Positions 1,083-45,447 of a DNA stretch of 64,000 bases are shown piece after piece. Every line of letters starts with the position of its first letter. Within the stretch, counting starts at the first letter, position 1. This DNA comes from Escherichia coli (GTDB lineage: Bacteria; Pseudomonadota; Gammaproteobacteria; Enterobacterales; Enterobacteriaceae). The notes under the pieces were generated by a model that ran no database searches, had not been told where the DNA came from, and saw only the letters and a program-made list of their open reading frames with translations. Location of the stretch: NCBI RefSeq assembly GCF_001677475.2, contig NZ_CP015229.1; one strand, given 5' to 3'. A program made the translations under genes and the position numbers.

Positions 1083-3179
1083 TTACTCAATGCGTACAAA
1101 AAGACCGATATAGCCACGCGTTGTATCGTGACTAATGCGGGTCCCCGAAAGCGCCGTGTAACGACCGGGGAAGTTGTATTCACCAGCACCGCCAATCACA
1201 ACCTGCGGTGAGGATGCGTATGTCCCTGTATCGCTAACCCGTGCACTCATAGCCAGAGGGCCAAGACGGGAACCCGGCACAATATCACCGAGCCCCAGAG
1301 ACGCATCTGCACCAAAACTCTCCCCCTGATATGCCGCCATAATCGGCACACCAACGGCCGGGTATTTATAATATGAGCCTGAGCCCGCCATCCTGGACAG
1401 CAGGTACGCCAGTGAATCTCCGTCGTATACAACTACCCGCGATGACATGTTCCAGCTGTTATCGCTGTCGTTGTACCGGTACTGCATATAGTGAATACAG
1501 TGTTCACCCTGATAATACTGGTTGTAGCACATCAGGGTTTTAAATTTGCGGACTGTGTCGGATTCACTGTTGGCGTACGGTGACCACATCACATCAATAA
1601 TGCCGTTAAATTGCGTGGTACCGGTAAGCAGTTGCGAGGAGTCTGTAATACTGACCGCATACCGCCCCGGCGTGACTTTCTTCAACCACTCAACGAAATC
1701 AGACAGCCCCTCAAACGCCAGAGCGTCAGTGCTGGTGAATGCCTGTCCAAACCCATACATCCCGGACAGGGCCAGCCTGCCCGGTGTGCGGTCACGGATA
1801 TCACTCTGGGGTTCCATCGTCGCAGCCGCGTTCAGCTCAAGCTCCGTGCGCATGGCTTCAGCCGTGTCATGCGCCAGTAATGCGCGGCCCTTCTCTGACA
1901 GCAGAGACAGTGAGGCATTCCCGTCTGTATTGAAGTACAGAAGATTATCTGCCCGTTGCGTCAGTGCGCTGATTGCCGTTAAGACGTCATTAAGCGGTTG
2001 TTTGCCTGCCAGCGCGTTTGTGATTGTCGTCGCAAAGTTCGGGTCATTGCCCAGCGCCGCTGCCAGCTCGTTCAGGGTGTCCAGAACTTCCGGCGATGAG
2101 CCAACCAGCGCAGCAAGCAGTTTGCGCACAAACGCTGCGTTCGCTGCTTCCAGACCGGCGGCATCATCCGGTGGGGTTGGGGTGGTTGGGGTGCCGGTGA
2201 AGGCCGGACTGTCCAGTGGCGCTTTTGTTTTCGCCTCGTCCATGACGTCTTTGACAGCCTTTGGCGTGGCAGCCAGTTCCTCGCTGTCGTTGTCCGTATC
2301 ACTACAGAGTTGCACCAGACCTTTTTCTGTCGTGGAGGCATTTGTTGCATTCAGGTCATCAACTATCTGCTGCGCCTCATCCCTGTACTGTTTCGCTTCC
2401 TGCGCATTGTCTGCACCTGCATCCTGGCTGGCTTTAGCCTGTCGGGCGTATTCGGCGGCACTGTTTTTGTGCCCCAGCGCCGCATTTGCCGACAGTTCTG
2501 AACTGGTCGCTGCTGATGATGCGGCATTATGATAAAGGCGGGCGCGTTCGGCGGCATCGACTGATTCGTCCCGCGCTGTGCCTGATGACTGTGCGCTGTT
2601 TTCTGCCTCACCCGCAAAACGTTCCGCATCATCACGGGCCGTTGCGGTTGTCGTCACATCCTGTGCCGTCTGCTGTGCGTTTCCGGCTGCAGCTTCGGCG
2701 CTCTGCTGTGTCTGATTTTTTAGCTCTTCTGCCTCATCCTTACTAACCGCCGCAGATGTTGCTGCATTGATTGCATCATCAGCAGCTGTTTCTGCTCTCT
2801 CCCTGTCACTGACCACCTGCTCAGACAAGCGAACAACGGTATTTACCATTTCCTCAAAACGCTTCATTACCTCAGGGCGTAAATCACCCTCCTTTGGTGC
2901 ATCCAGAAAAGCATTCAGCGTATCCGGCTCATCTGTCGGTGCAACATAAATTTCCCCCGCCTTTACAGGAGGATGCCCTGAGCGGGACAAAAATACATCA
3001 TAAAATCCCGGCTCAGCATTAATAGTATACCCGCCATCACTTCCCGTAAGACAGGTTGCCACAATATTAACCACAACTGTCGGACTGGTTCTTCTGGCTC
3101 GCAATTCAATCGCACAGTTTACGACAGGCTCACCCGCTCCGTCCTTCAGGACACCTGAAATCTTTACTGCCATATTCAC
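1083..3179 (-). CDS. stf: Side tail fiber protein (Stf-like)
   Basis: 698-aa ORF between lom and tfa; Ala/Gln-rich coiled shaft and C-terminal receptor-binding region. Confidence 0.8.
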   Translation of the reverse strand: MNMAVKISGVLKDGAGEPVVNCAIELRARRTSPTVVVNIVATCLTGSDGGYTINAEPGFYDVFLSRSGHPPVKAGEIYVAPTDEPDTLNAFLDAPKEGDLRPEVMKRFEEMVNTVVRLSEQVVSDRERAETAADDAINAATSAAVSKDEAEELKNQTQQSAEAAAGNAQQTAQDVTTTATARDDAERFAGEAENSAQSSGTARDESVDAAERARLYHNAASSAATSSELSANAALGHKNSAAEYARQAKASQDAGADNAQEAKQYRDEAQQIVDDLNATNASTTEKGLVQLCSDTDNDSEELAATPKAVKDVMDEAKTKAPLDSPAFTGTPTTPTPPDDAAGLEAANAAFVRKLLAALVGSSPEVLDTLNELAAALGNDPNFATTITNALAGKQPLNDVLTAISALTQRADNLLYFNTDGNASLSLLSEKGRALLAHDTAEAMRTELELNAAATMEPQSDIRDRTPGRLALSGMYGFGQAFTSTDALAFEGLSDFVEWLKKVTPGRYAVSITDSSQLLTGTTQFNGIIDVMWSPYANSESDTVRKFKTLMCYNQYYQGEHCIHYMQYRYNDSDNSWNMSSRVVVYDGDSLAYLLSRMAGSGSYYKYPAVGVPIMAAYQGESFGADASLGLGDIVPGSRLGPLAMSARVSDTGTYASSPQVVIGGAGEYNFPGRYTALSGTRISHDTTRGYIGLFVRIE

Positions 3180-3238
3180 CCCACAAAAAAGCCCGCCTGA
3201 ACCCGGCGGGCTGTCATAACACTGTGTTACCTGGCTAA

Positions 3239-15979: not shown

Positions 15980-17959
15980 TCAGGCCACCGACGAACGCAC
16001 CAGCCCGCGCCAGTCAAGTGGTGCCACACCGGCATCAATACGGATTTTTGTGGCGATACCGTCAGTGGTGAAACCTTCCTGCTGGTCAATGTAGGGGGTG
16101 TCCACACCATCGAGCCAGGCCACTTCAATGGTGTCGGTGCCCTGTGCCGCAGCCAGGTACCAGGTTTTCGGATCTGCCGCATCAAGACGCGCTTCCGCAA
16201 TTACTTCGGCAAAGTTCTGGATCGGGTTAATGACACCGGCGTTTGCATCCGCCCCTTTCACACTGGCCGATTTGATGGTCTGGTTCGCCACCGTCTCCAG
16301 TGACACCGGCACCAGCATAAAGGCCGGACGGATATTCAGGGCGCGATCGCCTTCTTTCTGCAGGCGCATCATCTGACGGGCCGCATCCAGCCCGGAAACG
16401 GAGATCCCGCCGGTGGCTATATTTTTGTGATCGGTATGGAACAGGGCCTTACCGTCTGACAGTTTCGGGTTATCCGTCAGCACCTTGTAAACCAGGTCAC
16501 CAATCGTTGCCTTCGCCGCACGCCCCATCTTCATCGGCACGTCCACCAGCATATTCAGATCATCATTGATAATGGCCTGGCGGGTGATGGAGAAAATCTC
16601 CCCGTAGGTGGCCAGAGCAATGGTCTCCTTGCGATCTGAGGTGGTGATGTATTTATACTCCGCCCCCTCACGAACCTGACGCAGAGAACCAAAACCGCCC
16701 ATCCCCACGCGATACGCTGTTTTGAAGTCTGACAGGCGTCCCTTACGGGTCCACTTCTGGAAGGTTTCTTCTGATTCCTCCCAGCCCTGGATCAGCCCCT
16801 TGTTCGACACATCCAGCAGAATATTGCCAAAATCAGAGGTGCTGTGCGTCAGCGCCAGCCCGACCATCTGCATGGGGTTATAACTGGCCACCCCAATACC
16901 ACGCTCGGTCAGTGACATGCGAGCCCATTCACGCAGGGTCATCCCGTTATAGACATTATCCTTCTCGACATTTTCATATCCGGCACGGGCCAGCATCGCC
17001 TGGCGGATCCCGTCTCCCACAAAATTGCCGTTTCCGGCATAAATATGGGCCGGTGTGTTTTTGTTGGTCGGCGAGGACTCCTTGCCCATTTCATTCAGAA
17101 GGCGCTCGCGGGCCATTTCCAGCGAACAGTCAGGATCGGCCACACACTGCGCCTGAAGCGCCTGATAGCGCCCGCCAAACATGGCAAACAGATCGTTAAT
17201 GCCTGACATGCGGGCTTTCTGCTCAGCCATAACGCGGGCGCGAATGGTCGCCTCATCAGACACTGCCGGTACCGGTGATGGTTCTGTTACCGCCGGTGCA
17301 GGGATTGTCACTGTGGTATCACGCGGGGCACTGTTGTGTGGCTGCGTGATCATATTTCGGATGGATTCCGGCATCTTTTTAAATTCCTCTGTACGTGTTG
17401 ACTGAATACATGCCATTGCCTTAACGGCTGGCGTCACCTGGTCAGCAAATCCGTGTGCCAGACACTCGGCACCGGACATCCAGGTCTCATCCGCCAGCAT
17501 GGCGGCAATTTCATCGGTAGTTTTTCCGGTTTTCTGCGCATATACCGGCACCATAACCGACTCAAGTTTGTCCAGACGTTCGGCATAAGTGCGCATTTTC
17601 TCCGCATCACCACCGCTGATCCCCCAGGGTTTATGGATCATCATGAAGGCATTTTCCGGCATAATGACCGTGTCACCGGCCATCGCAATCAGGGATGCCA
17701 TCGAGGCGGCAACGCCATCCACATACACGGTAATGGCCGCACCGTGATTTTTCAGGGCATTAAAAATGGCGATGCCTTCAAAGACATCGCCACCCGGTGA
17801 GTTGATGTGGAGATTAATGTGGGTGATATCACCCAGGGCATTCATATCGCTGACAAACTGCTTCGCGGTGACGCCCCAGAAACCAATCTCGTCATAAATA
17901 TAAATATCCGCCTCACCCTGACCCCCCGCCTGCATCCTGAACCAGGATTTATTCTTCAT
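15980..17959 (-). CDS. Prohead protease (ClpP/S49-like) fused to major capsid protein
   Basis: N-terminal protease core (INSPGGDVFEGIAIFNAL...VDGVAASMASLIAMAGD) and long C-terminal capsid-like region in one ORF; start MKNKSWF placed just after portal stop. Confidence 0.7.
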   Translation of the reverse strand: MKNKSWFRMQAGGQGEADIYIYDEIGFWGVTAKQFVSDMNALGDITHINLHINSPGGDVFEGIAIFNALKNHGAAITVYVDGVAASMASLIAMAGDTVIMPENAFMMIHKPWGISGGDAEKMRTYAERLDKLESVMVPVYAQKTGKTTDEIAAMLADETWMSGAECLAHGFADQVTPAVKAMACIQSTRTEEFKKMPESIRNMITQPHNSAPRDTTVTIPAPAVTEPSPVPAVSDEATIRARVMAEQKARMSGINDLFAMFGGRYQALQAQCVADPDCSLEMARERLLNEMGKESSPTNKNTPAHIYAGNGNFVGDGIRQAMLARAGYENVEKDNVYNGMTLREWARMSLTERGIGVASYNPMQMVGLALTHSTSDFGNILLDVSNKGLIQGWEESEETFQKWTRKGRLSDFKTAYRVGMGGFGSLRQVREGAEYKYITTSDRKETIALATYGEIFSITRQAIINDDLNMLVDVPMKMGRAAKATIGDLVYKVLTDNPKLSDGKALFHTDHKNIATGGISVSGLDAARQMMRLQKEGDRALNIRPAFMLVPVSLETVANQTIKSASVKGADANAGVINPIQNFAEVIAEARLDAADPKTWYLAAAQGTDTIEVAWLDGVDTPYIDQQEGFTTDGIATKIRIDAGVAPLDWRGLVRSSVA

Positions 17960-19451
17960 GCTGGCTGTCGGTGGCCTGCTGACGCTGTTGTTCAGTTCCG
18001 GCACTGTTGCCTCCTTTGTCGTTGGCGGGGTCAGTATCAAAGACCAGCCCCAGCCTGCGGTTTTCCTCAGTTTCCGCCTTACGGCGACGTTTGACCTCAT
18101 CCGGGTTGCGCCCGCCTGCGCGGATCCAGTCGGATTCCGTCGCGGCACCACCCCGGATCTGTATCCGCCAGGCTTCAGCCTCCTTAACCGGGTCAATCCA
18201 CGGCATCACCGGACCGGAATACGTCGCGTTATATAGCGTCTTCATCTCCACATCCGCCGGAATTTTCAGCAGACCTGCCGCAACCACCATATTCAGCCAT
18301 GTCCGGTACACCGGGCGGGTTACCGCACCAATAAAACAGTCCTGCAGGATCAGGTAACCATCCGTGGACTCGACCAGCTCCTGCCGCTGGGCGCTGTAGG
18401 TGCCGTTATAGTTACGCGCCGCACTGGAAAAGCTCAGACGACTGCCAGCTGCCACTGCACGCAACTGGCCGTTGCGGAAAGTTTCAAGGTTGGGATTGGG
18501 ACGATCGGATTTGACCATGCCGATATCCTCGCCCTTGCGCAAATCGTCATAAATAATTCCCGGGGTGATATGGACTTCCCGCTCGGTTTCTTTGCTCCCC
18601 GGATCTTCATAGTCCTGTCCGTCACCTTTACGGATATACAGTCCCAGCGCCGCAGCAATACGCGCCGCTGTCAGTTCCGCATCCTCATACTCCTTAAGGG
18701 CACTGATCCGCATCAGCACCCCCGATAACATGGATGAGCCTCGCGTCTGATGCAGACGACGAGTGAACTTCAGGTGGATCATTTTTCCGGCGGCGATTTC
18801 TTTCGTATCACTCTGCCGACCACTGACCGGATAATTTTTATAAACCAGATATTTTTTCGGTCTGCCCCACTCATCAAGAAAAACCCCCTGATTCAGCCCG
18901 GCGGATTCATCACTGCGCATGGGAACAAAATCCGGCTCCATCGCTTCAAGCCAGAATGGCACTCCCGCCGTCCGTTCCAGACCGTTTCCCGCACCACTGA
19001 CCATCTGCGCAAACACTTCACCATCCCGCAGCCAGGTCCGCAGCAGTAAACGCTCAAGCACGGGACGGGTATACTGCCCTGTCACATCCGGACTCACGGA
19101 CCATTCAGCCCACAACCGGCGGATATCCGCAGCCAGCTCTGCCGCCATTTCCCCGTTTTTTCGTAATGGCTGAGGCTCCACAGTAATTCCTCTGGCACCA
19201 ATCACCCGCTCTTCAAGCTTGTCAAACACACCAATCACCAGGTCATGATTGATATCCAGAAAACGGGCCTGCTCCCGCAGGGAAACCGCGCCATATTTAC
19301 TGAGTTGATCAGCAGATCGATTTTCACGCCGGGCTTTATGTGTCCGGGTCGGTTTCACCGCCTCATAGGCCATGATTAACGCCCTTGAACGCAGTCTGGC
19401 CGCTTTCCAGCCTGGAGAGAACACGCCTATCACATCATCAATAATTGCCAT
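17949..19451 (-). CDS. Portal protein (lambda B-like)
   Basis: 500-aa ORF between W-like gene and protease-capsid gene. Confidence 0.8.
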   Translation of the reverse strand: MAIIDDVIGVFSPGWKAARLRSRALIMAYEAVKPTRTHKARRENRSADQLSKYGAVSLREQARFLDINHDLVIGVFDKLEERVIGARGITVEPQPLRKNGEMAAELAADIRRLWAEWSVSPDVTGQYTRPVLERLLLRTWLRDGEVFAQMVSGAGNGLERTAGVPFWLEAMEPDFVPMRSDESAGLNQGVFLDEWGRPKKYLVYKNYPVSGRQSDTKEIAAGKMIHLKFTRRLHQTRGSSMLSGVLMRISALKEYEDAELTAARIAAALGLYIRKGDGQDYEDPGSKETEREVHITPGIIYDDLRKGEDIGMVKSDRPNPNLETFRNGQLRAVAAGSRLSFSSAARNYNGTYSAQRQELVESTDGYLILQDCFIGAVTRPVYRTWLNMVVAAGLLKIPADVEMKTLYNATYSGPVMPWIDPVKEAEAWRIQIRGGAATESDWIRAGGRNPDEVKRRRKAETEENRRLGLVFDTDPANDKGGNSAGTEQQRQQATDSQHEE

Positions 19452-19687
19452 TAAAACCTCGCCAGTTTAAATCCCGGTTTTCCCCGCCTGCGGCTCACCA
19501 TCGCGGCAAGCCTGCGTTCCCACTCCTGACGTCCGGCGCGGATCTGAGAAAGGCTTTCCAGCGTCAGTTGCTGTCCGTTGAAGGTGACAGACTTCCCCTC
19601 CAGTACGGCCATTTCCGCTTCACGGTACCGCTGTATCATTTCTCTGGCTTCTTCTGTGCTCACAACCAGCCTCCTGATGTTATCCAT
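19451..19687 (-). CDS. W: Head-tail joining protein W-like
   Basis: 78 aa ending ...RRRGKPGFKLARF, similar to lambda W C-terminus. Confidence 0.65.
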   Translation of the reverse strand: MDNIRRLVVSTEEAREMIQRYREAEMAVLEGKSVTFNGQQLTLESLSQIRAGRQEWERRLAAMVSRRRGKPGFKLARF

Positions 19688-21783
19688 GGATTATCTTCCG
19701 CACGCTCCGTCCGCAGTTTTTTCTTCCGGCGACGGCGTTTTTCTGCCCCGGCCGTCAGTTCCGGGGATGCCGTTTCACCAGAACGCTCCTGCGGGAAGAC
19801 GAGCCACGTTTCCCGCTGTGCCCAGTCCGGTGCGGAGGGCCAGCGGATCTTTTCGTAACCATGCAGAACGGCAAGCGCATCCGCATAAACCAGCAGGTCA
19901 AACGCCTCGTTAGCGCCCCTGCCCGGTTTTCGCCATTTTCCGTCACTGCCGCGCTCTTCATAGGTCAGCTCATCGTAAAACCACCGCCCCAGCCAGTCGG
20001 GAAAGTGGATATAGTTCGGCCCCGGTGTGTCACGCCACAGGGCATTATTTACACGGTCCTTAAACGCATCCGTCTGAACCAGCCACAGCGCGACATCGCC
20101 ACTGGCTCTGGCACGGCGGGCACTTCTGCCGGTATTATCCGGGAAGGTACGGTTAATCAGCCTGTCACGGCGAAGACCATCCCCCTTGAACAGAAACACC
20201 CTGTTGCCCAGTCCGTCACTCCGGCAACGACGCCAGAAACGATAGGCGTTATCTGTCACCCCGGCTTCCCCTCCCGTATCCACCGCCATGGCCATCAGAC
20301 GCATGCGCACATCCGGATCAGAAGCCAGCGGCCATGTTTTATGGAACACATCCGTCAGCAACAAATCCCAGTCCTCCGGATATGCCGCCGGATCAACCGG
20401 CAGACTTTCACCGTTGGGACTGCAGCGCAGTGAATGCCGGATGTTGTAGCGATCAACAATCCAGCGTTCCCCCTGCTCTCCGTATCCGGTGATCTGCACA
20501 ACAAAACGGCGATTTTTACCGCCCTGTACGTCAACCGTTGCCTCAATAAAACGCACACCATCCGGCACAGATCGCCGGGGAAACGGCTCGGCACGCTGTT
20601 CAAGCAGTTCACTTTTACGCTGTTCCGTGGCTGAACGGGGCAGATAGGGTCGTCCGATATCGGTGTTCACCACCACTTTCAGGGTCTCTTCACTGCCGGT
20701 TCGCTCATACTCTTCTTCTGCCGCCAGCAGTTTAAAAATCAGTTGTTCCCAGGTCTGAAACGCCGCAGCCGGCCCCTCCATCCAGAATGACGCAATCCGG
20801 GAATTTCGTGGCGTTCCGGTGATACTGCCGTCCGCCGCCGCCCGTTCACCTTCACGAAGCCAGATCCCCTGGTTATTCAGTTCACGTTTCTGTTCCGGAG
20901 CAATCAGGCCGCAGCAGTGCGGACACATCAGGCGGGCCGCCTGCCCGGCAGCCACAAAATCAGGGTTATTCCGGTAACCGGTCATGTTATCCATCACCGG
21001 CTGAAAATATTCCCCACAGTGCGGACACGGCCAGTACCACCGACGGCGGTCTCCCCGGTTATACAGGGACAGGATCCCCGTTGTTGGGGGTGCCTCATGT
21101 GTGCCGCCACATCGCCATTTGGTGTCAGTGATATCCCGCCCGGGTGAACTCTCGACCAGGGTCATCCCGGAAGACATAAAGGTGGTGGTACGCTTTGATG
21201 CCAGGGTGAAGGCATCCCCTTCCCCGTCCACGTTTTCAGGGAAACGGTCATAATCCGTCAGCGCCACACGACGGTAATCCGAGGAGGAAAATACGGTGAT
21301 CGACGGCCAGCCAATCTTCAGGAAGGAGCCGTCAAGAAACATTTTATCGTGGACGTTGTTGTCATTACGGGAAGGACTGAGACGCTTACTGACCTCCGGG
21401 CTGTGACGAAACGTTCTGGAAAGACGCGTTCTGGAGTGTTCCCGCGCCTTGGTCTCGGTCATCTGCACCACCAGCATATCCGCCGGATCACAGATGATGC
21501 CGTACACAATCCAGCCATCAATCAGCCCTTCGGTTTTCCCGGTCCGCGCCGGTCCTACAAACACCACCGCGTCATATTCACGGGCTGATAATGTATTAAT
21601 GGGGTCAATCATATAGGGCGTCAGTGATGACTCCCACGGACCGGAAGTGTTGGCTCCCCGTGGTACCCGCATATAACGCCTGATGGCTTCCGCTACTGGT
21701 AACCGGCCAGGTGGGCGAAACAGCGAGGCCACTTCGCGCCAGATATCGGATGCGCGGCTATGGCTCTCGTTCACCTGATTCAC
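19660..21783 (-). CDS. Terminase large subunit (lambda A-like)
   Basis: 707 aa; Walker A-like VGPARTGKTEG, lambda A-like N-terminus, basic C-terminal tail. Confidence 0.85.
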   Translation of the reverse strand: MNQVNESHSRASDIWREVASLFRPPGRLPVAEAIRRYMRVPRGANTSGPWESSLTPYMIDPINTLSAREYDAVVFVGPARTGKTEGLIDGWIVYGIICDPADMLVVQMTETKAREHSRTRLSRTFRHSPEVSKRLSPSRNDNNVHDKMFLDGSFLKIGWPSITVFSSSDYRRVALTDYDRFPENVDGEGDAFTLASKRTTTFMSSGMTLVESSPGRDITDTKWRCGGTHEAPPTTGILSLYNRGDRRRWYWPCPHCGEYFQPVMDNMTGYRNNPDFVAAGQAARLMCPHCCGLIAPEQKRELNNQGIWLREGERAAADGSITGTPRNSRIASFWMEGPAAAFQTWEQLIFKLLAAEEEYERTGSEETLKVVVNTDIGRPYLPRSATEQRKSELLEQRAEPFPRRSVPDGVRFIEATVDVQGGKNRRFVVQITGYGEQGERWIVDRYNIRHSLRCSPNGESLPVDPAAYPEDWDLLLTDVFHKTWPLASDPDVRMRLMAMAVDTGGEAGVTDNAYRFWRRCRSDGLGNRVFLFKGDGLRRDRLINRTFPDNTGRSARRARASGDVALWLVQTDAFKDRVNNALWRDTPGPNYIHFPDWLGRWFYDELTYEERGSDGKWRKPGRGANEAFDLLVYADALAVLHGYEKIRWPSAPDWAQRETWLVFPQERSGETASPELTAGAEKRRRRKKKLRTERAEDNPWITSGGWL

Positions 21784-22256
21784 ATATCGGCCTCATCACA
21801 ACAGTCAATGACTGCCTTTTCCAGTGTGTCGCGGATCTCATCAACCACAATCTGCACTTCGTTCAGTTGTGATGCAGTCCACCCCCTGTCCCTCTCCAGC
21901 CTGTCAGGCCAGGTTTCCAGTACCTGAACTATCGCTTTCACCACGACAGAAAACGACCGCCTGACATCACTGACAGGGACAAGCTGAACAGTTTCATGCT
22001 GAAATTTAAGACGCTCGCGCTCGGACTGATACCATGCCTTGCGATCGTGTGGATTCATCTCCTCATCTTCGGTGGATGGTGTTTTTGCCAGCAGCGCAGT
22101 AATCAGGTCCGTCAGGAGATAAAGTTTTTTCTTCTCATTACTGCCCGGAGCAAGAGGAACATCCGCCATTCTTGCGGTAACGGTCTGCCGGTGCAGGCCT
22201 GAAAGGGCTGCCAGTTGATTAATATTTAACTTCATATTTTTCAGCTCGCCGTCCAT
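21780..22256 (-). CDS. Terminase small subunit (Nu1/Noh-like)
   Basis: 158 aa with N-terminal HTH (LNINQLAALSGLHRQTVTARM) immediately upstream of large subunit. Confidence 0.75.
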   Translation of the reverse strand: MDGELKNMKLNINQLAALSGLHRQTVTARMADVPLAPGSNEKKKLYLLTDLITALLAKTPSTEDEEMNPHDRKAWYQSERERLKFQHETVQLVPVSDVRRSFSVVVKAIVQVLETWPDRLERDRGWTASQLNEVQIVVDEIRDTLEKAVIDCCDEADM

Positions 22257-22379
22257 CTACGCCTCCTCCACATACCCCTCTGAACAGAAGTGATTCTGTT
22301 TTTTTGTAAAGAAATGCCGCCACACAAAGATGTCGAACAAAAATTGGCCACAACCATCATCTTTTTTGCATCAATTACA

Positions 22380-22520
22380 TTAAAAACAACAGTTTACATA
22401 CATGATGATGATGACGATAAAATCACAAAAATGCGCTTTTTTCCGCGCCGACCCGCCCCGTGTACAGGCCCACCCCGCCAGGAGGACCCGAAAAATGATA
22501 ATTGTTATCATTTTGTAATG
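22380..22520 (-). other. cos region (cosN/cosB) of the prophage
   Basis: Minus strand reads CGGGTCCT...ACGGGGCGGGTCGGCGCGG (22443-22459), resembling lambda cos ...ACGGGGCGGCGACCTCGCGG, upstream of the small terminase gene. Confidence 0.5.
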
Positions 22521-22718
22521 TGTTCCGGTTTCTTCCACCATCGCACCGGCCAGGCGACTATGAGGGGACAACGCCGCGCTCCGTTAACGCAGTAAACCCC
22601 GGTGTGTATCGTTTTTGATTATCCCCGCACACTCGCGCAGAGGAGTCTCCCGGTCGGGCTGCGGTCTCTGTTAATGCAGGAATACGGCGACAATACCGCG
22701 CATGGATAATAAGGTCAC

Positions 22719-22943
22719 TCAACACACTGGCTGTAATGCAGCGGATACCATGCGGCATTTAGCGGCATTCATCGTACACTCAACGGTCAGCTCTTCATTC
22801 GTGGCATTCACCTGAAAGGTCCGGGAGTGTAATTGCGTACATTTACCACTGAACGAATCTTCAACAAGAACACGACCACGCTGCAAAATACGGAACGGAA
22901 TTGTTCCCTGAAAAGGCTTTACGGTTACCAATAATTTCTTCAT
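22719..22943 (-). CDS. Hypothetical protein downstream of Rz
   Basis: 74-aa ORF from MKKLLVTVKPFQG... with SD GGAGAA; function unknown. Confidence 0.4.
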   Translation of the reverse strand: MKKLLVTVKPFQGTIPFRILQRGRVLVEDSFSGKCTQLHSRTFQVNATNEELTVECTMNAAKCRMVSAALQPVC

Positions 22944-22966
22944 GCATTCTCCGGATAACAAAAATA

Positions 22967-23434
22967 CTAGTTAATACACTGAGTGCGGATATATTCCTGA
23001 AGCATTCTCAATGCTGCCTGGTCGCTGATGATTCCGTCTCTGATACCGAGAACGTTTCGTCCAGCAACCGGAGAGAGTTCGACGGCGGCATCATTGCCCA
23101 CGCCGGAGGTGCCGGTGGCTTCACGCACGGTACCGGGGCAGGTGGCGTTGATCCGCAGGCGCTTACGACCAGCGGCAACATCAGCACGCAGAGTTTCATT
23201 TTCAGCTCTCGCATCGGCTAATTCCCTCGAGTATTTTGCATCGAGCGCAGCAACATCGCGCTGGCGCACCTGCATATCAGTAATGGTTGCGTTTGCCAGC
23301 TCCAGCTCACTGGCTTTTTTATCGCGCTGCGCTTTGTAGGTGATGGCGTTATCGCGGTAATGATTCAGCCCCAGACTAAGCACACCACAGGCTACCAGCA
23401 GGACAATAATCACCACACACAGAACACGGTTCAT
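22967..23434 (-). CDS. Rz: i-spanin Rz
   Basis: Starts [18 protein letters not shown] (TM anchor) then ...[15 protein letters not shown]... lambda Rz-like. Confidence 0.9.
23008..23199 (-). CDS. Rz1: o-spanin Rz1 lipoprotein embedded in Rz (+1 frame)
   Basis: [15 protein letters not shown] lipobox, Pro-rich [15 protein letters not shown], fully inside Rz. Confidence 0.85.
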
Positions 23435-23435
23435 A

Positions 23436-23549
23436 TCACCACCAACGGATTGCCCAGACCAGAACAGCAATGGCTACAATACGAATGGCAAAAGCTGCCG
23501 CTCTTGTTAAATCCAGACTGGCTGGCGTCTCCACTTCAATGCCTTTCAT
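23436..23549 (-). CDS. Putative 37-aa single-TM micro-protein between endolysin and Rz
   Basis: ATG with GAGG upstream; [37 protein letters not shown]; stop TGA 1 nt before Rz ATG. Confidence 0.3.
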
Positions 23550-28067: not shown

Positions 28068-28142
<75 letters not shown>

Positions 28143-28145
28143 ATA

Positions 28146-28221
<76 letters not shown>

Positions 28222-43977: not shown

Positions 43978-44187
43978 ATGGCTATGAGCAGCTTATTTTT
44001 AACCGAAGATGAATTGCTAATATTAACGGGCTGCAAATATGCAAGCCACCAGCGAAAATGGTTAATGGAAAACGGGCTTCCGTTCTATACCAATCGTAGT
44101 GGCAAACCGATTGTCAGCCGGGATCTATTTACCTGCAATAAAACTTTACCACCACGCGAGGTAGAGCCGAATTTTGGTGCAATCTGA
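43978..44187 (+). CDS. xis: Excisionase-like protein
   Basis: 69-aa ORF immediately upstream of and overlapping integrase start. Confidence 0.6.
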   Translation: MAMSSLFLTEDELLILTGCKYASHQRKWLMENGLPFYTNRSGKPIVSRDLFTCNKTLPPREVEPNFGAI

Positions 44188-45212
44188 TGGGAAGACGAAG
44201 GAAAAATCCTGAACACGAAAAATTACCTCCAAATGTATACCCAAATAAATATAGTTATGTATGGAAACCAACATCCAGAGAATCTGTCACACTAACCGCC
44301 ATCAAGGATGGTTTAGCTGCTTTATGGAAAAAGTATGAGGAAACTGTAAATAATCGCGATCGCGCAATGACATTCGGTCGCTTGTGGGAAAAATTCCTCG
44401 CCAGCGCCTATTACAGTGACCTCAGTCCAAGAACACAAAAAGATTATCTGCAACATCAAAAAAAGTTGCTTGCCGTATTCGGTAAGGTGCCGGCAGATTC
44501 CATAAAACCAGAACACATCCGTCGATACATGGACAAGAGAGGGGAACAGAGTAAAACGCAAGCCAACCATGAAAAAAGCAGTATGTCCCGCGTTTACAAT
44601 TGGGGGTATGAGCGAGGGTACGTGAAGGGTAACCCATGTGCAGGTGTAAGTAAATTCAAGGCCAAAAACCGCGAACGATATGTAACCGACAAAGAATACC
44701 AGGCAGTATTAAGTGTTGCACCTCTTCCTGTTTTTATCGCAATGGAAATTGCCTATCTGTGTGCAGCGAGGGTTTCCGATGTGTTATCACTGAAATGGGA
44801 GCAGATTGGAAACGACGGGATCTTTATCCAGCAAGGGAAAACAGGGAAAAAACAGATAAAAGCATGGAGTCCACGATTACAGGCGGCGATCGAAAAAGCA
44901 AAACAGTTACCAACATCTGCCTATGTAATCAGCAATCAATATGGCAACCGATATATGTACAAAGGTTTTAACGAAATGTGGGTAGAAGCAAGAAATCACG
45001 CAGGCAAAATTTCAGGTATTTTAACCGACTTCACCTTTCATGATCTGAAGGCGAAAGGAATTTCAGACTATGAAGGAAGCAGCCGGGATAAGCAACTTTT
45101 CTCTGGTCACAAAACCGAAGGGCAAGTGCTAATCTATGACAGAAAGGTTAAAGTTTCACCAACACTTGATGTCCCGTTACCTGATAATATTCCAAGAAAA
45201 TATTCCAAGTAA
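44187..45212 (+). CDS. int: Tyrosine integrase
   Basis: 341 aa; C-terminal catalytic region with R...HDLKAKG...GHKTEGQVLIY; 3' end 43 nt from serU. Confidence 0.9.
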   Translation: MGRRRKNPEHEKLPPNVYPNKYSYVWKPTSRESVTLTAIKDGLAALWKKYEETVNNRDRAMTFGRLWEKFLASAYYSDLSPRTQKDYLQHQKKLLAVFGKVPADSIKPEHIRRYMDKRGEQSKTQANHEKSSMSRVYNWGYERGYVKGNPCAGVSKFKAKNRERYVTDKEYQAVLSVAPLPVFIAMEIAYLCAARVSDVLSLKWEQIGNDGIFIQQGKTGKKQIKAWSPRLQAAIEKAKQLPTSAYVISNQYGNRYMYKGFNEMWVEARNHAGKISGILTDFTFHDLKAKGISDYEGSSRDKQLFSGHKTEGQVLIYDRKVKVSPTLDVPLPDNIPRKYSK

Positions 45213-45254: not shown

Positions 45255-45344
45255 GATTGAATTTTGGCGGAGAGAGGGGGATTTGAACCCCCGGTGGAGT
45301 TGCCCCCACTCCGGTTTTCGAGACCGGTCCGTTCAGCCGCTCCG
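45255..45344 (-). tRNA. serU: tRNA-Ser (anticodon CGA), serU; prophage attachment site
   Basis: 90-nt tRNA with long variable arm, anticodon loop CUCGAAA, GGTTCAAATCC T-arm, CCA end. Confidence 0.9.
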
Positions 45345-45447
45345 GCATCTCTCCGTTCAGATGGTTGCCATGATGCCAGGAAATTTGGCATTTTAACAGT
45401 CCCTGTCCGTGCAATTTTGTTCAAGTGACGAGTTTGCGAGCAAAACG

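Follow-up and report, generated by a model that had tools for sequence, protein, structure and literature searches.

A predicted lambda-type cos site with a variant cosN core in an Escherichia coli lambdoid prophage

Layout of the predicted cos site

The DNA analysed here is a stretch of 64,000 nucleotides from Escherichia coli (the window; contig NZ_CP015229.1), in which an apparently complete lambdoid prophage, about 45 kb long, is integrated. Between the Rz lysis gene of this prophage and its small and large terminase genes (terS and terL), about 200 bp upstream of the small terminase ATG (22256), lies a segment that resembles the cos (cohesive-end, DNA-packaging) site of phage lambda. The whole site extends from about 22510 to about 22321, slightly past position 22380, at which the original prediction had let it start. 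The following features were identified (slashes mark predicted nicks):

22496..22510, minus strand: dyad TGATAACAATTATCA, 6 nt upstream of cosQ
22483..22489, minus strand: cosQ heptamer GGGTCCT, predicted packaging-termination subsite, identical to lambda cosQ
22459..22482, minus strand: cosQ-cosN spacer of 24 nt, ending in CG before the predicted top-strand nick
22443..22460, minus strand: cosN, CG/GGGCGGGTCGG/CGCGG, with the left half GGGCGG and both flanks matching lambda
22417..22442, minus strand: phased A/T tracts AAAAAA GCGC ATTTTT GTGA TTTTAT, between cosN and R3
22397..22416, minus strand: R3, CGTCATCATCATCATGTATG, proposed principal TerS binding site, one arm of a 14-nt inverted repeat with R2
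22384..22396, plus strand: site resembling the integration host factor (IHF) consensus, AAACAACAGTTTA, with 1 mismatch to WATCAANNNNTTR, in the R3-R2 gap at the position of lambda I1
22352..22368, plus strand: R2, CATCATCTTTTTTG, inverted relative to R3 and R1
22321..22336, minus strand: R1, TCGACATCTTTGTGTG, direct copy of the CATCTTT core that it has in common with R2
21780..22256, minus strand: terS, small terminase, 158 aa, DUF1441 (Pfam PF07278, E 5.5e-49)
19660..21783, minus strand: terL, large terminase, 707 aa, expected cosN-nicking enzyme (Pfam GpA_ATPase, 5e-81, and GpA_nuclease, 1e-83)

The minus strand from 22461 to 22443 was read directly as ACGGGGCGGGTCGGCGCGG (19 nt), and over a longer distance as ...TGATAACAATTATCATTTTTCGGGTCCTCCTGGCGGGGTGGGCCTGTACACGGGGCGGGTCGGCGCGGAAAAAAGCGCATTTTTGTGATTTTATCGTCATCATCATCATG... 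The lambda junction, taken from J02459, is ...GGGTCCTTTCCGGTGATCCGACAGGTTACG/GGGCGGCGACCT/CGCGGG (longer, ...GATAATCATTATCACTTTACGGGTCCTTTCCGGTGATCCGACAGGTTACG/GGGCGGCGACCT/CGCGGGTTTTCGC...), in agreement with the lambda sequence quoted in the original prediction. The 12-mer GGGCGGGTCGGC has a single exact copy in the window, at 22447-22458 on the minus strand, and six further matches with 2 mismatches each are at chance level. The composite GGGTCCT-N22-CGGGGCGG was found exactly once in the 64 kb, where 0.19 occurrences are expected with 2 mismatches permitted. The likeness to lambda goes beyond the 12-mer: when the two sites were aligned they were colinear from the dyad upstream of cosQ, over cosQ, spacer and cosN, to the CGCGG flank. 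The direct reading, the unique composite and the colinear alignment confirm the earlier claim that a minus-strand variant of lambda cosN lies upstream of the small terminase gene. The two strings compared in that claim are indeed related but different; it had been missed that they are unequal in length (19 versus 20 nt), the core having 11 bp here and 12 bp in lambda.

Based on its position upstream of terS and terL, the cosQ heptamer, the identical GGGCGG, the CG and CGCGG flanks, the R3, R2 and R1 repeats and a large terminase of the gpA family, the site is predicted with high confidence to be a lambda-type cos, belonging to a complete lambdoid prophage with a head module of the Gifsy/Fels-1/O157 'Sp' type. 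The order of the subsites and their approximate spacing are those of lambda, and GGGTCCT, CG/GGGCGG and CGCGG are identical. In both phages A/T tracts follow cosN, cosB is composed of R3, a site at the IHF position, R2 in inverted orientation and R1, terS begins about 200 bp downstream of the site, and TerL is of the gpA family. The distance from cosQ to the predicted nick (24 nt; lambda 23) is within the range of about 20-25 bp looked for. TerL, encoded immediately downstream, matches PF05876 and PF20454 over its full length and is 24% identical to lambda gpA, also over the full length (BLASTP E 7e-19). In contrast, the core differs from lambda from position 7 on, R3 begins nearer to cosN by about 6 bp, the CATCATC/CATCTTT repeats have no relation to the CGTTTCC type of lambda, and TerS is a DUF1441 protein that is not Nu1-like in sequence.

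Homologous sites were found upstream of DUF1441 terS genes in VT1-Sakai (Sp15), CP-1639, 1720a-02, several Stx2a phages, Fels-1, mEp460, cdtI and the Hafnia phage yong2. The segment from cosQ to terS is identical in E. coli 08-00022, where it is unannotated and the late region is 97.6% identical. In VT1-Sakai, 1720a-02, CP-1639 and other O157-type lambdoid prophages with a DUF1441 TerS, cosQ and spacer are 90-100% identical to those of the window, and the 24-nt spacer, the flanks and the A/T tracts match. The cores differ among these relatives: GGGCGGGTCGG in the window, GGGCGGGCGGG (11 bp) in VT1-Sakai and GGGCGGGCGG (10 bp) in 1720a-02 and CP-1639. VT1-Sakai has the same cosB type and a TerS that is 95% identical, while 1720a-02 has a TerL that is 99% identical (702/707 residues). 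The group of Gifsy-1, Fels-1, cdtI, mEp460 and mEp213/LLS likewise combines a DUF1441 TerS with a gpA-type TerL, a tripartite cosB and a variable right half of cosN, and Fels-1 carries the CATCATC type of R sequence seen in the window. However, the members of this group have a 12-bp core after a 22-nt spacer, whereas the window has 11 bp after 24 nt. The dyad upstream of cosQ has counterparts in lambda (GATAATCATTATC, at the same place) and in VT1-Sakai and CP-1639 (GATAACCATTATCA), and is partly conserved in cdtI; we know of no function assigned to it.

In an alignment of eight phages CGCGG was invariant (8/8), and cosQ, GGGCGG and the GC..TTTTT segment were conserved. The cosQ heptamer, which is highly conserved among lambda-like phages (PMC4669245), is kept in all E. 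coli relatives and reads GGTACT in Fels-1 and GGGTCCC in Cr-LKS3, a phage of Cylindrospermopsis. Among 55 unique O157-type sites, the differences between cosQ and R3 cluster at core positions 7-10. This agrees with the published picture of a cosN with a selected left and a tolerant right half: selection acts on the left half, on the CG dinucleotides at both flanks and on cosQ, and bp 7-12 vary naturally in N15, phiD326 and Gifsy-1 (PMC4669245). In lambda itself, changes at bp 7-12 have little phenotype, and phages with mismatched ends are viable (PMC4669245). Judged by its sequence, the allele of the window retains both flanks and the selected left half CG/GGGCGG; its differences from lambda fall in the right half, where changes are tolerated. 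Published variants include Gifsy-1, at bp 8, 9 and 11, and mEp213/LLS, with GGGCGGCGCGCT (PMC4669245, PMC12315714). N15 and phiD326 have 12 nt with 2 substitutions (bp 9 and 12), and N15 has a cosB with a single R site (PMC4669245), whereas in the window the length is changed as well. Variant right halves are already known from lambda-like cos sites, those of the Gifsy-1 group among them, and the new element is this allele: when the literature was searched with GGGCGGGTCGGC and related 11-12-mers, only unrelated papers were retrieved and no description of the allele was found. Figure S8 of PMC2669165 shows an alignment with lambda for only the lambda-identical putative cos sites of the O157 prophages Sp4 and Sp14.

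cosB, TerS and packaging specificity

Between cosN and terS the sequence follows the plan R3-I1-R2(inverted)-R1 that has been described for the cosB of lambda, 21, phi80 and Gifsy-1 (PMC9026076). The single inverted repeat detected in this region consists of R3 and R2, with 14-nt arms 28 nt apart. An inverted AAGATGATG element is also present in VT1-Sakai, Fels-1 and an island of strain Nissle 1917 (see below), and R1 has conserved counterparts in VT1-Sakai and the Nissle island (TTCGACATCTTT) and in Fels-1 (TTCATCATCTTC). The A/T-tract segment, whose lambda counterpart is GGGTTTTCGCTATTTATGAAAATTTT, is probably a bend or an I2-like segment; within it, GCGCATTTTT is nearly invariant across the family. 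R3 starts 31 nt after CGCGG in the window and in Fels-1, and about 31-34 nt after it in yong2. The window therefore carries the arrangement of the DUF1441-TerS group, a CGCGG(A/G)...GC..TTTTT segment with R3 about 31 nt after CGCGG.

The only Pfam match of TerS is DUF1441, so that it falls outside the Nu1 sequence family. In an AlphaFold model, two N-terminal helices (residues 12-19 and 23-32) are followed by short strands. The best fold matches, with weak E-values, were chains of 54-56 residues from a study of a viral DNA-packaging motor (TM 0.70) and winged helix-turn-helix proteins of the MerR type, and the model suggests that the N-terminus of TerS is a MerR-type-like winged helix-turn-helix. 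This is presumably also the fold class of the Nu1 DNA-binding domain, which would make the two proteins alike in working, but not in sequence family.

The wing motif of TerS and the type of R3 were perfectly associated across 76 loci, which had been fetched by TerS homology:

wing APGSNEK(K/N)K: R3 type CATCATCATCAT
wing AGGHESNLK: R3 type CATCACCAC
wing AGGHDKLK: R3 type CCACCATCATC

CP-1639 and 1720a-02 have cosQ to cosN and the C-terminal half of TerS in common with the window, but differ in the repeats (CACCATCACCACC) and in the N-terminus of TerS: they carry another cassette of cosB and TerS N-terminus, with CACCAC repeats and a GGHESNLK wing. When the window (22256-22420) was compared with these two phages, a mosaic joint was observed about 30 bp after cosN, cosB and the first 75 or so residues of TerS being swapped as one cassette. 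The swap parallels the specificity swap between lambda and 21. The sequences point to cosB and TerS as a specificity cassette, with packaging specificity residing in cosB and the DNA-binding domain of TerS.

It had been claimed that the changed cohesive end would affect the compatibility with lambda-type terminases and in vitro packaging. Incompatibility is indeed to be expected, but another cause is indicated. Since the cosB repeats and TerS are unrelated to those of lambda, lambda terminase and lambda in vitro extracts would be expected to reject the DNA of this prophage whatever its cosN sequence, and changes at bp 7-12 of cosN are tolerated (PMC4669245). In practice, lambda packaging reagents are not expected to work on this prophage, owing to cosB and TerS.

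The anatomy of the site, the families to which TerL and TerS belong, the conservation and covariation in relatives and the existence of packaged and functional relatives are direct observations, from which we infer the nick positions, the overhang length and the following binding and nicking steps. In lytic growth, by analogy with lambda, the N-terminal winged helix-turn-helix of TerS would bind the CATCATC-type R3, the inverted R2 and R1, probably across a bend induced by IHF or by the A-tracts. Bound TerS would position the gpA-family TerL on cosN, where TerL would nick the top strand after ACACG (22459/22458) and the bottom strand at the CGCGG flank or immediately beside it. The end nearer to terS would then be packaged, and at the next cos on the concatemer cosQ (GGGTCCT) and cosN would direct the terminating cut.

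Several results count against this picture of cosB and TerS. IHF-like matches number 47 in the window, where 58 are expected, so that only the position of the site between R3 and R2 is suggestive. The case for a winged helix-turn-helix depends on a model built from a shallow alignment (pLDDT 76, pTM 0.35) and on structural matches whose E-values do not fall below 0.02. No significant similarity between TerS and lambda Nu1 was detected by BLASTP (E 0.48), and a TerS profile run against PDB sequences found nothing below E 0.07.

Length of the cohesive end

The original prediction assumed a 12-nt end, GGGCGGGTCGGC. In the window, however, no more than 11 bp separate the conserved CG and CGCGG flanks, and CG is present at both nick positions only when 11 bp are counted. 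The top-strand nick is predicted from the sequence between 22459 and 22458; the bottom-strand nick is predicted at 22447/22448 for an 11-nt end or at 22446/22447 for a 12-nt end. The distances in the window and its relatives are as follows:

lambda: spacer 23 nt, core 12 bp, cosQ to CGCGG 35
cdtI, mEp460, Fels-1 and yong2: spacer 22 nt, core 12 bp, cosQ to CGCGG 34
most O157-type sites: spacer 24 nt, core 10 bp, cosQ to CGCGG 34
a few sites with the core of the window: spacer 23 nt, core 11 bp, cosQ to CGCGG 34
window and VT1-Sakai: spacer 24 nt, core 11 bp, cosQ to CGCGG 35
Cr-LKS3: spacer 26 nt, core 9 bp, cosQ to CGCGG 35

The distance from cosQ to CGCGG is exactly 34 bp in 66 of the 76 DUF1441-TerS loci, made up as 22 + 12, 23 + 11 or 24 + 10. 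Within this fixed frame CG/GGGCGG floats by up to 2 bp, and the right flank is fixed. From CGCGG to R3 the distance does not change, whatever the length of the core.

A 5' overhang of 11 nt, 5'-GGGCGGGTCGG (plus-strand 5' end at 22448, CCGACCCGCCC), is the reading preferred here, with the probabilities for and against it evenly balanced; it is at least as likely as the 12-nt end assumed before. Two arguments lead to it. The symmetric CG...CG flanks are kept only in the 11-bp register, and, if cosB and cosQ determine the place of the right nick and CG/GGGCGG that of the left, the overhang would equal the core length. Cr-LKS3 provides a parallel. It has a homologous TerS, GGGTCCC, a left nick at CG/GGGC, CGCGG and a distance of 35 from cosQ to CGCGG, and its reported 5' ends have 9 nt, GGGCTCGCG, bounded by the conserved CG flanks (PMC9303873). 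The boundaries of its sequence record agree with these ends. It differs from the window in that the 9-nt overhang follows a 26-nt spacer and in its distant host and genome (PMC9303873). Cr-LKS3 is the only relative found for which an end other than 12 nt is reported as determined.

Some observations speak against an 11-nt end. For this prophage, and likewise for relatives whose core has 10 or 11 bp, no mapped virion ends were found. The distance from cosQ to CGCGG is 35 in the window (24 + 11), whereas the modal value is 34. By analogy with lambda, the symmetric arrangement proposed for TerL might hold the stagger at 12 bp, so that one nick would no longer fall at a conserved CG.

The last point leads to a possible, although rather unlikely, alternative: a functional cos whose 5' overhang is anchored on the left nick and has 12 nt, 5'-GGGCGGGTCGGC (22447-22458; plus-strand end at 22447, GCCGACCCGCCC). 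Here the geometry of TerL would set the 12-bp stagger and the bottom nick would fall one base inside CGCGG. Lambda and the relatives that have been studied do have 12-nt ends, symmetrically placed TerL subunits have been proposed to do the nicking (PMC4669245, PMC9026076), the TerL of the window is a full-length homologue of gpA, and bottom-strand nicking in lambda is relatively insensitive to sequence (PMC4669245). On the other hand, this register destroys the highly conserved CG of the right nick and leaves almost no rotational symmetry. It also has to account for the same TerL (99% identical) serving 10- and 11-bp cores, for the 9-nt end bounded by conserved flanks in Cr-LKS3, a phage with a homologous TerS, and for a distance from right flank to R3 that stays constant as the core length varies.

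A 12-nt overhang could instead be anchored on the right nick, 5'-GGGGCGGGTCGG, with the top nick one base upstream, after ACAC. In this case the nick would be set by the distance from cosQ and from TerS bound at cosB. The conserved quantities are precisely the distances from cosQ to CGCGG and from CGCGG to R3, and in lambda the placement of the nick depends on the anchoring of TerS at R3 (PMC4669245, PMC9026076). However, the strongly conserved CG/GGGCGG, which is sequence-critical in lambda genetics, would lose its fixed relation to the nick, and the reported end of Cr-LKS3 begins with GGGC directly after CG. This arrangement is considered improbable.

If the 11-nt reading is followed, the length of the cohesive end may be polymorphic within one terminase lineage, which is put forward tentatively. 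The suggestion comes from the near-identical TerL (702/707) that serves cores of 10 bp (1720a-02 and most O157-type sites) and of 11 bp (the window and VT1-Sakai). In the same group of DUF1441 TerS and gpA-type TerL, but with more divergent terminases, the core has 12 bp (cdtI, mEp460, Fels-1) or 9 bp (Cr-LKS3), and opposite changes of the spacer hold the distance from cosQ to CGCGG at 34-35 bp. Provided that the nicks go with the flanks, the DNA sequence and the anchoring of TerS would set the stagger, and not a rigid enzyme geometry; with ends of 10-11 nt made by the same TerL, the view that gpA-type terminases have a fixed 12-bp stagger would need revision. Co-resident prophages and satellites could then have unequal ends, unable to anneal or be ligated, a difference that may serve as a barrier between the elements of a poly-lysogen or as a means of sorting them. 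The wider interest of the site lies in this possible length polymorphism under near-identical TerL proteins, by which the incompatibility of ends between co-resident elements, if true, becomes testable.

The boundaries of public sequence records were also inspected near the site. The cdtI record begins at GGGCGGGAGCGT and finishes with ...CCACG, and the yong2 record is broken exactly before CGCGG; both boundaries may reflect analogy and not an experiment, which would lessen their value as evidence for the place of the ends. In the phage collection none of the 18 DNA matches begins or finishes at this cos, only the distant cdtI, yong2 and Cr-LKS3 being cut at or near cosN. The record of mEp460_4F5 (LR595868.1) has its break 5 nt upstream of the place where the left nick is predicted, and has the core GGGCGGGAG followed by CGCGG (9 bp), versus GGGCGGGAGCGG (12 bp) in mEp460. 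Its short core is probably an artefact of end assembly, yet it is another sign of ends at the site. ASU11 (ON416862.2), a mitomycin-induced phage deposited as a 'complete genome', reads GGGTCCTCCTGGTGGGGTGGGCCT/TTATGGCACCATCACC at 420-460 (here the slash marks a junction) and lacks 44 bp that are present in CP-1639 and comprise all of the predicted cosN with its flanks. The most probable cause is that the assembly dropped the virion termini and the ends were then joined, which gives crude support for ends at this place. A search of the literature on yong2 and ASU11 retrieved nothing relevant.

Other candidate termini were rejected. Four IMG/VR contigs ending 2-5 nt short of the nick are draft isolate assemblies, which break at repeats. 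The start (1-33) of OWZI01000003.1, from a human gut metagenome, is contamination, as a Nextera adapter, TCGTCGGCAGCGTCAGATGTGTATAAGAGACAG, is fused there to ...CCTGAACACGGGGCGGGAGG. None of the 25 contigs in a metagenome scan ends at cos.

Function, distribution and prophage context

By analogy with its relatives, the cos of the window would be competent for packaging; the arguments are functional or packaged relatives, intact genes and satellites that copy the whole of cosQ, cosN and cosB. Phage 1720a-02, with a 10-bp core, infects and lysogenises E. coli K-12 (PMC6328086), and Sp15 (VT1-Sakai), with an 11-bp core, is packaged into particles (PMC2669165). Both papers report function, and no mapping of ends was found in them.

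Alternatively, the site could be a decayed cos in a defective prophage, in which the core shorter by one base and the changes in the right half abolished cutting. Many O157-type lambdoid prophages are indeed defective or partly defective (PMC2669165), a point that also tells against competence, and the allele is rare, being present in 2 of 5426 complete E. coli genomes at 99% identity or more over 76 nt. Nevertheless, cores of 10 or 11 bp are normal in this lineage, the functional 1720a-02 and the packaged Sp15 included, the flanking subsites and the phage genes are intact, and the same core recurs with TerS proteins 90-100% identical in about 10 independent contigs. Decay is accordingly given a low probability. 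In IMG/VR, about 7 of 100 O157-type sites carry the allele of the window. The weakest explanation, a chance G+C-rich likeness to lambda cosN without a packaging role, could appeal to the chance frequency of the 12-mer at 2 mismatches, but is effectively refuted by the comparative data, given the unique cosQ-spacer-cosN composite, the canonical place upstream of terS and an architecture of about 190 bp that is kept across Escherichia, Salmonella and Hafnia phages amid mosaic neighbouring sequence.

The packaging site is hereby located for a common type of E. coli prophage, and the expected termini are available for the sequencing of induced phage. In public records the site is unannotated or overlaid by a probably spurious open reading frame. 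Two open reading frames called mechanically span it, one of 63 aa (22380-22571, minus strand) and one of 101 aa (22290-22595, plus strand); in the 1720a-02 record a 49-aa 'hypothetical protein' is annotated over cos (2985-3134 of the locus L005), and likewise in some RefSeq genomes. Such calls across a non-coding packaging site are probably spurious. A scan of 22200-23000 for promoters and terminators gave nothing above chance, which is consistent with late transcription reading through cos.

A copy of the site was also observed outside a prophage. Nissle 1917 (NZ_CP022686.1, about 937.8-948.5 kb) has an island of about 11 kb at tRNA-Pro that consists of an integrase, Icd-like genes, a primase and SSB, then cos, followed by major capsid and decoration proteins and a 'terminase small subunit'. 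Here an O157-type cosQ-cosN-cosB has been copied in full, with CATCATC-type R3, R2 and R1 and the 10-bp core GGGCGGGAGG (3007-3180 of the locus L226). About 190 complete E. coli genomes match at about 94% over 76 nt, and most of the 25 metagenome hits are this island. From its sequence, the island looks like a phage satellite that mimics the whole cos of its helper, unlike the Rpp-type phage-inducible chromosomal islands (PICIs), which redirect TerS.

Further genes around the terminase genes are as follows:

22967-23470, minus strand: Rz (Pfam Phage_lysis)
19451-19687, minus strand: W-sized open reading frame, no Pfam match
17949-19451, minus strand: portal, lambda family
15980-18196, minus strand: fusion of ClpP protease and capsid (Pfam CLP_protease and Phage_capsid_4)

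DUF1441 TerS, gpA-type TerL, lambda-family portal and ClpP-protease/capsid fusion follow each other in this order, and the same head module is annotated in E. coli 08-00022, VT1-Sakai and Fels-1. The upstream part of the window holds the tape measure, J and tail fibre genes, and the other side holds replication genes, an ExoVIII-like nuclease and the integrase. The integrase gene (44187-45212) abuts tRNA-Ser(cga) (45265-45354, minus strand), where the prophage is integrated. The genes for terS, terL, portal, protease-capsid, tail, lysis, replication and integrase are all intact open reading frames. Genes for tRNA-Gly(tcc) and tRNA-Thr(tgt) were observed in the late regulatory region of the prophage (28068-28221, minus strand). 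Beyond the prophage, the window contains E. coli backbone with a yeeJ-like inverse autotransporter (2692 aa) and three tRNA-Asn genes.

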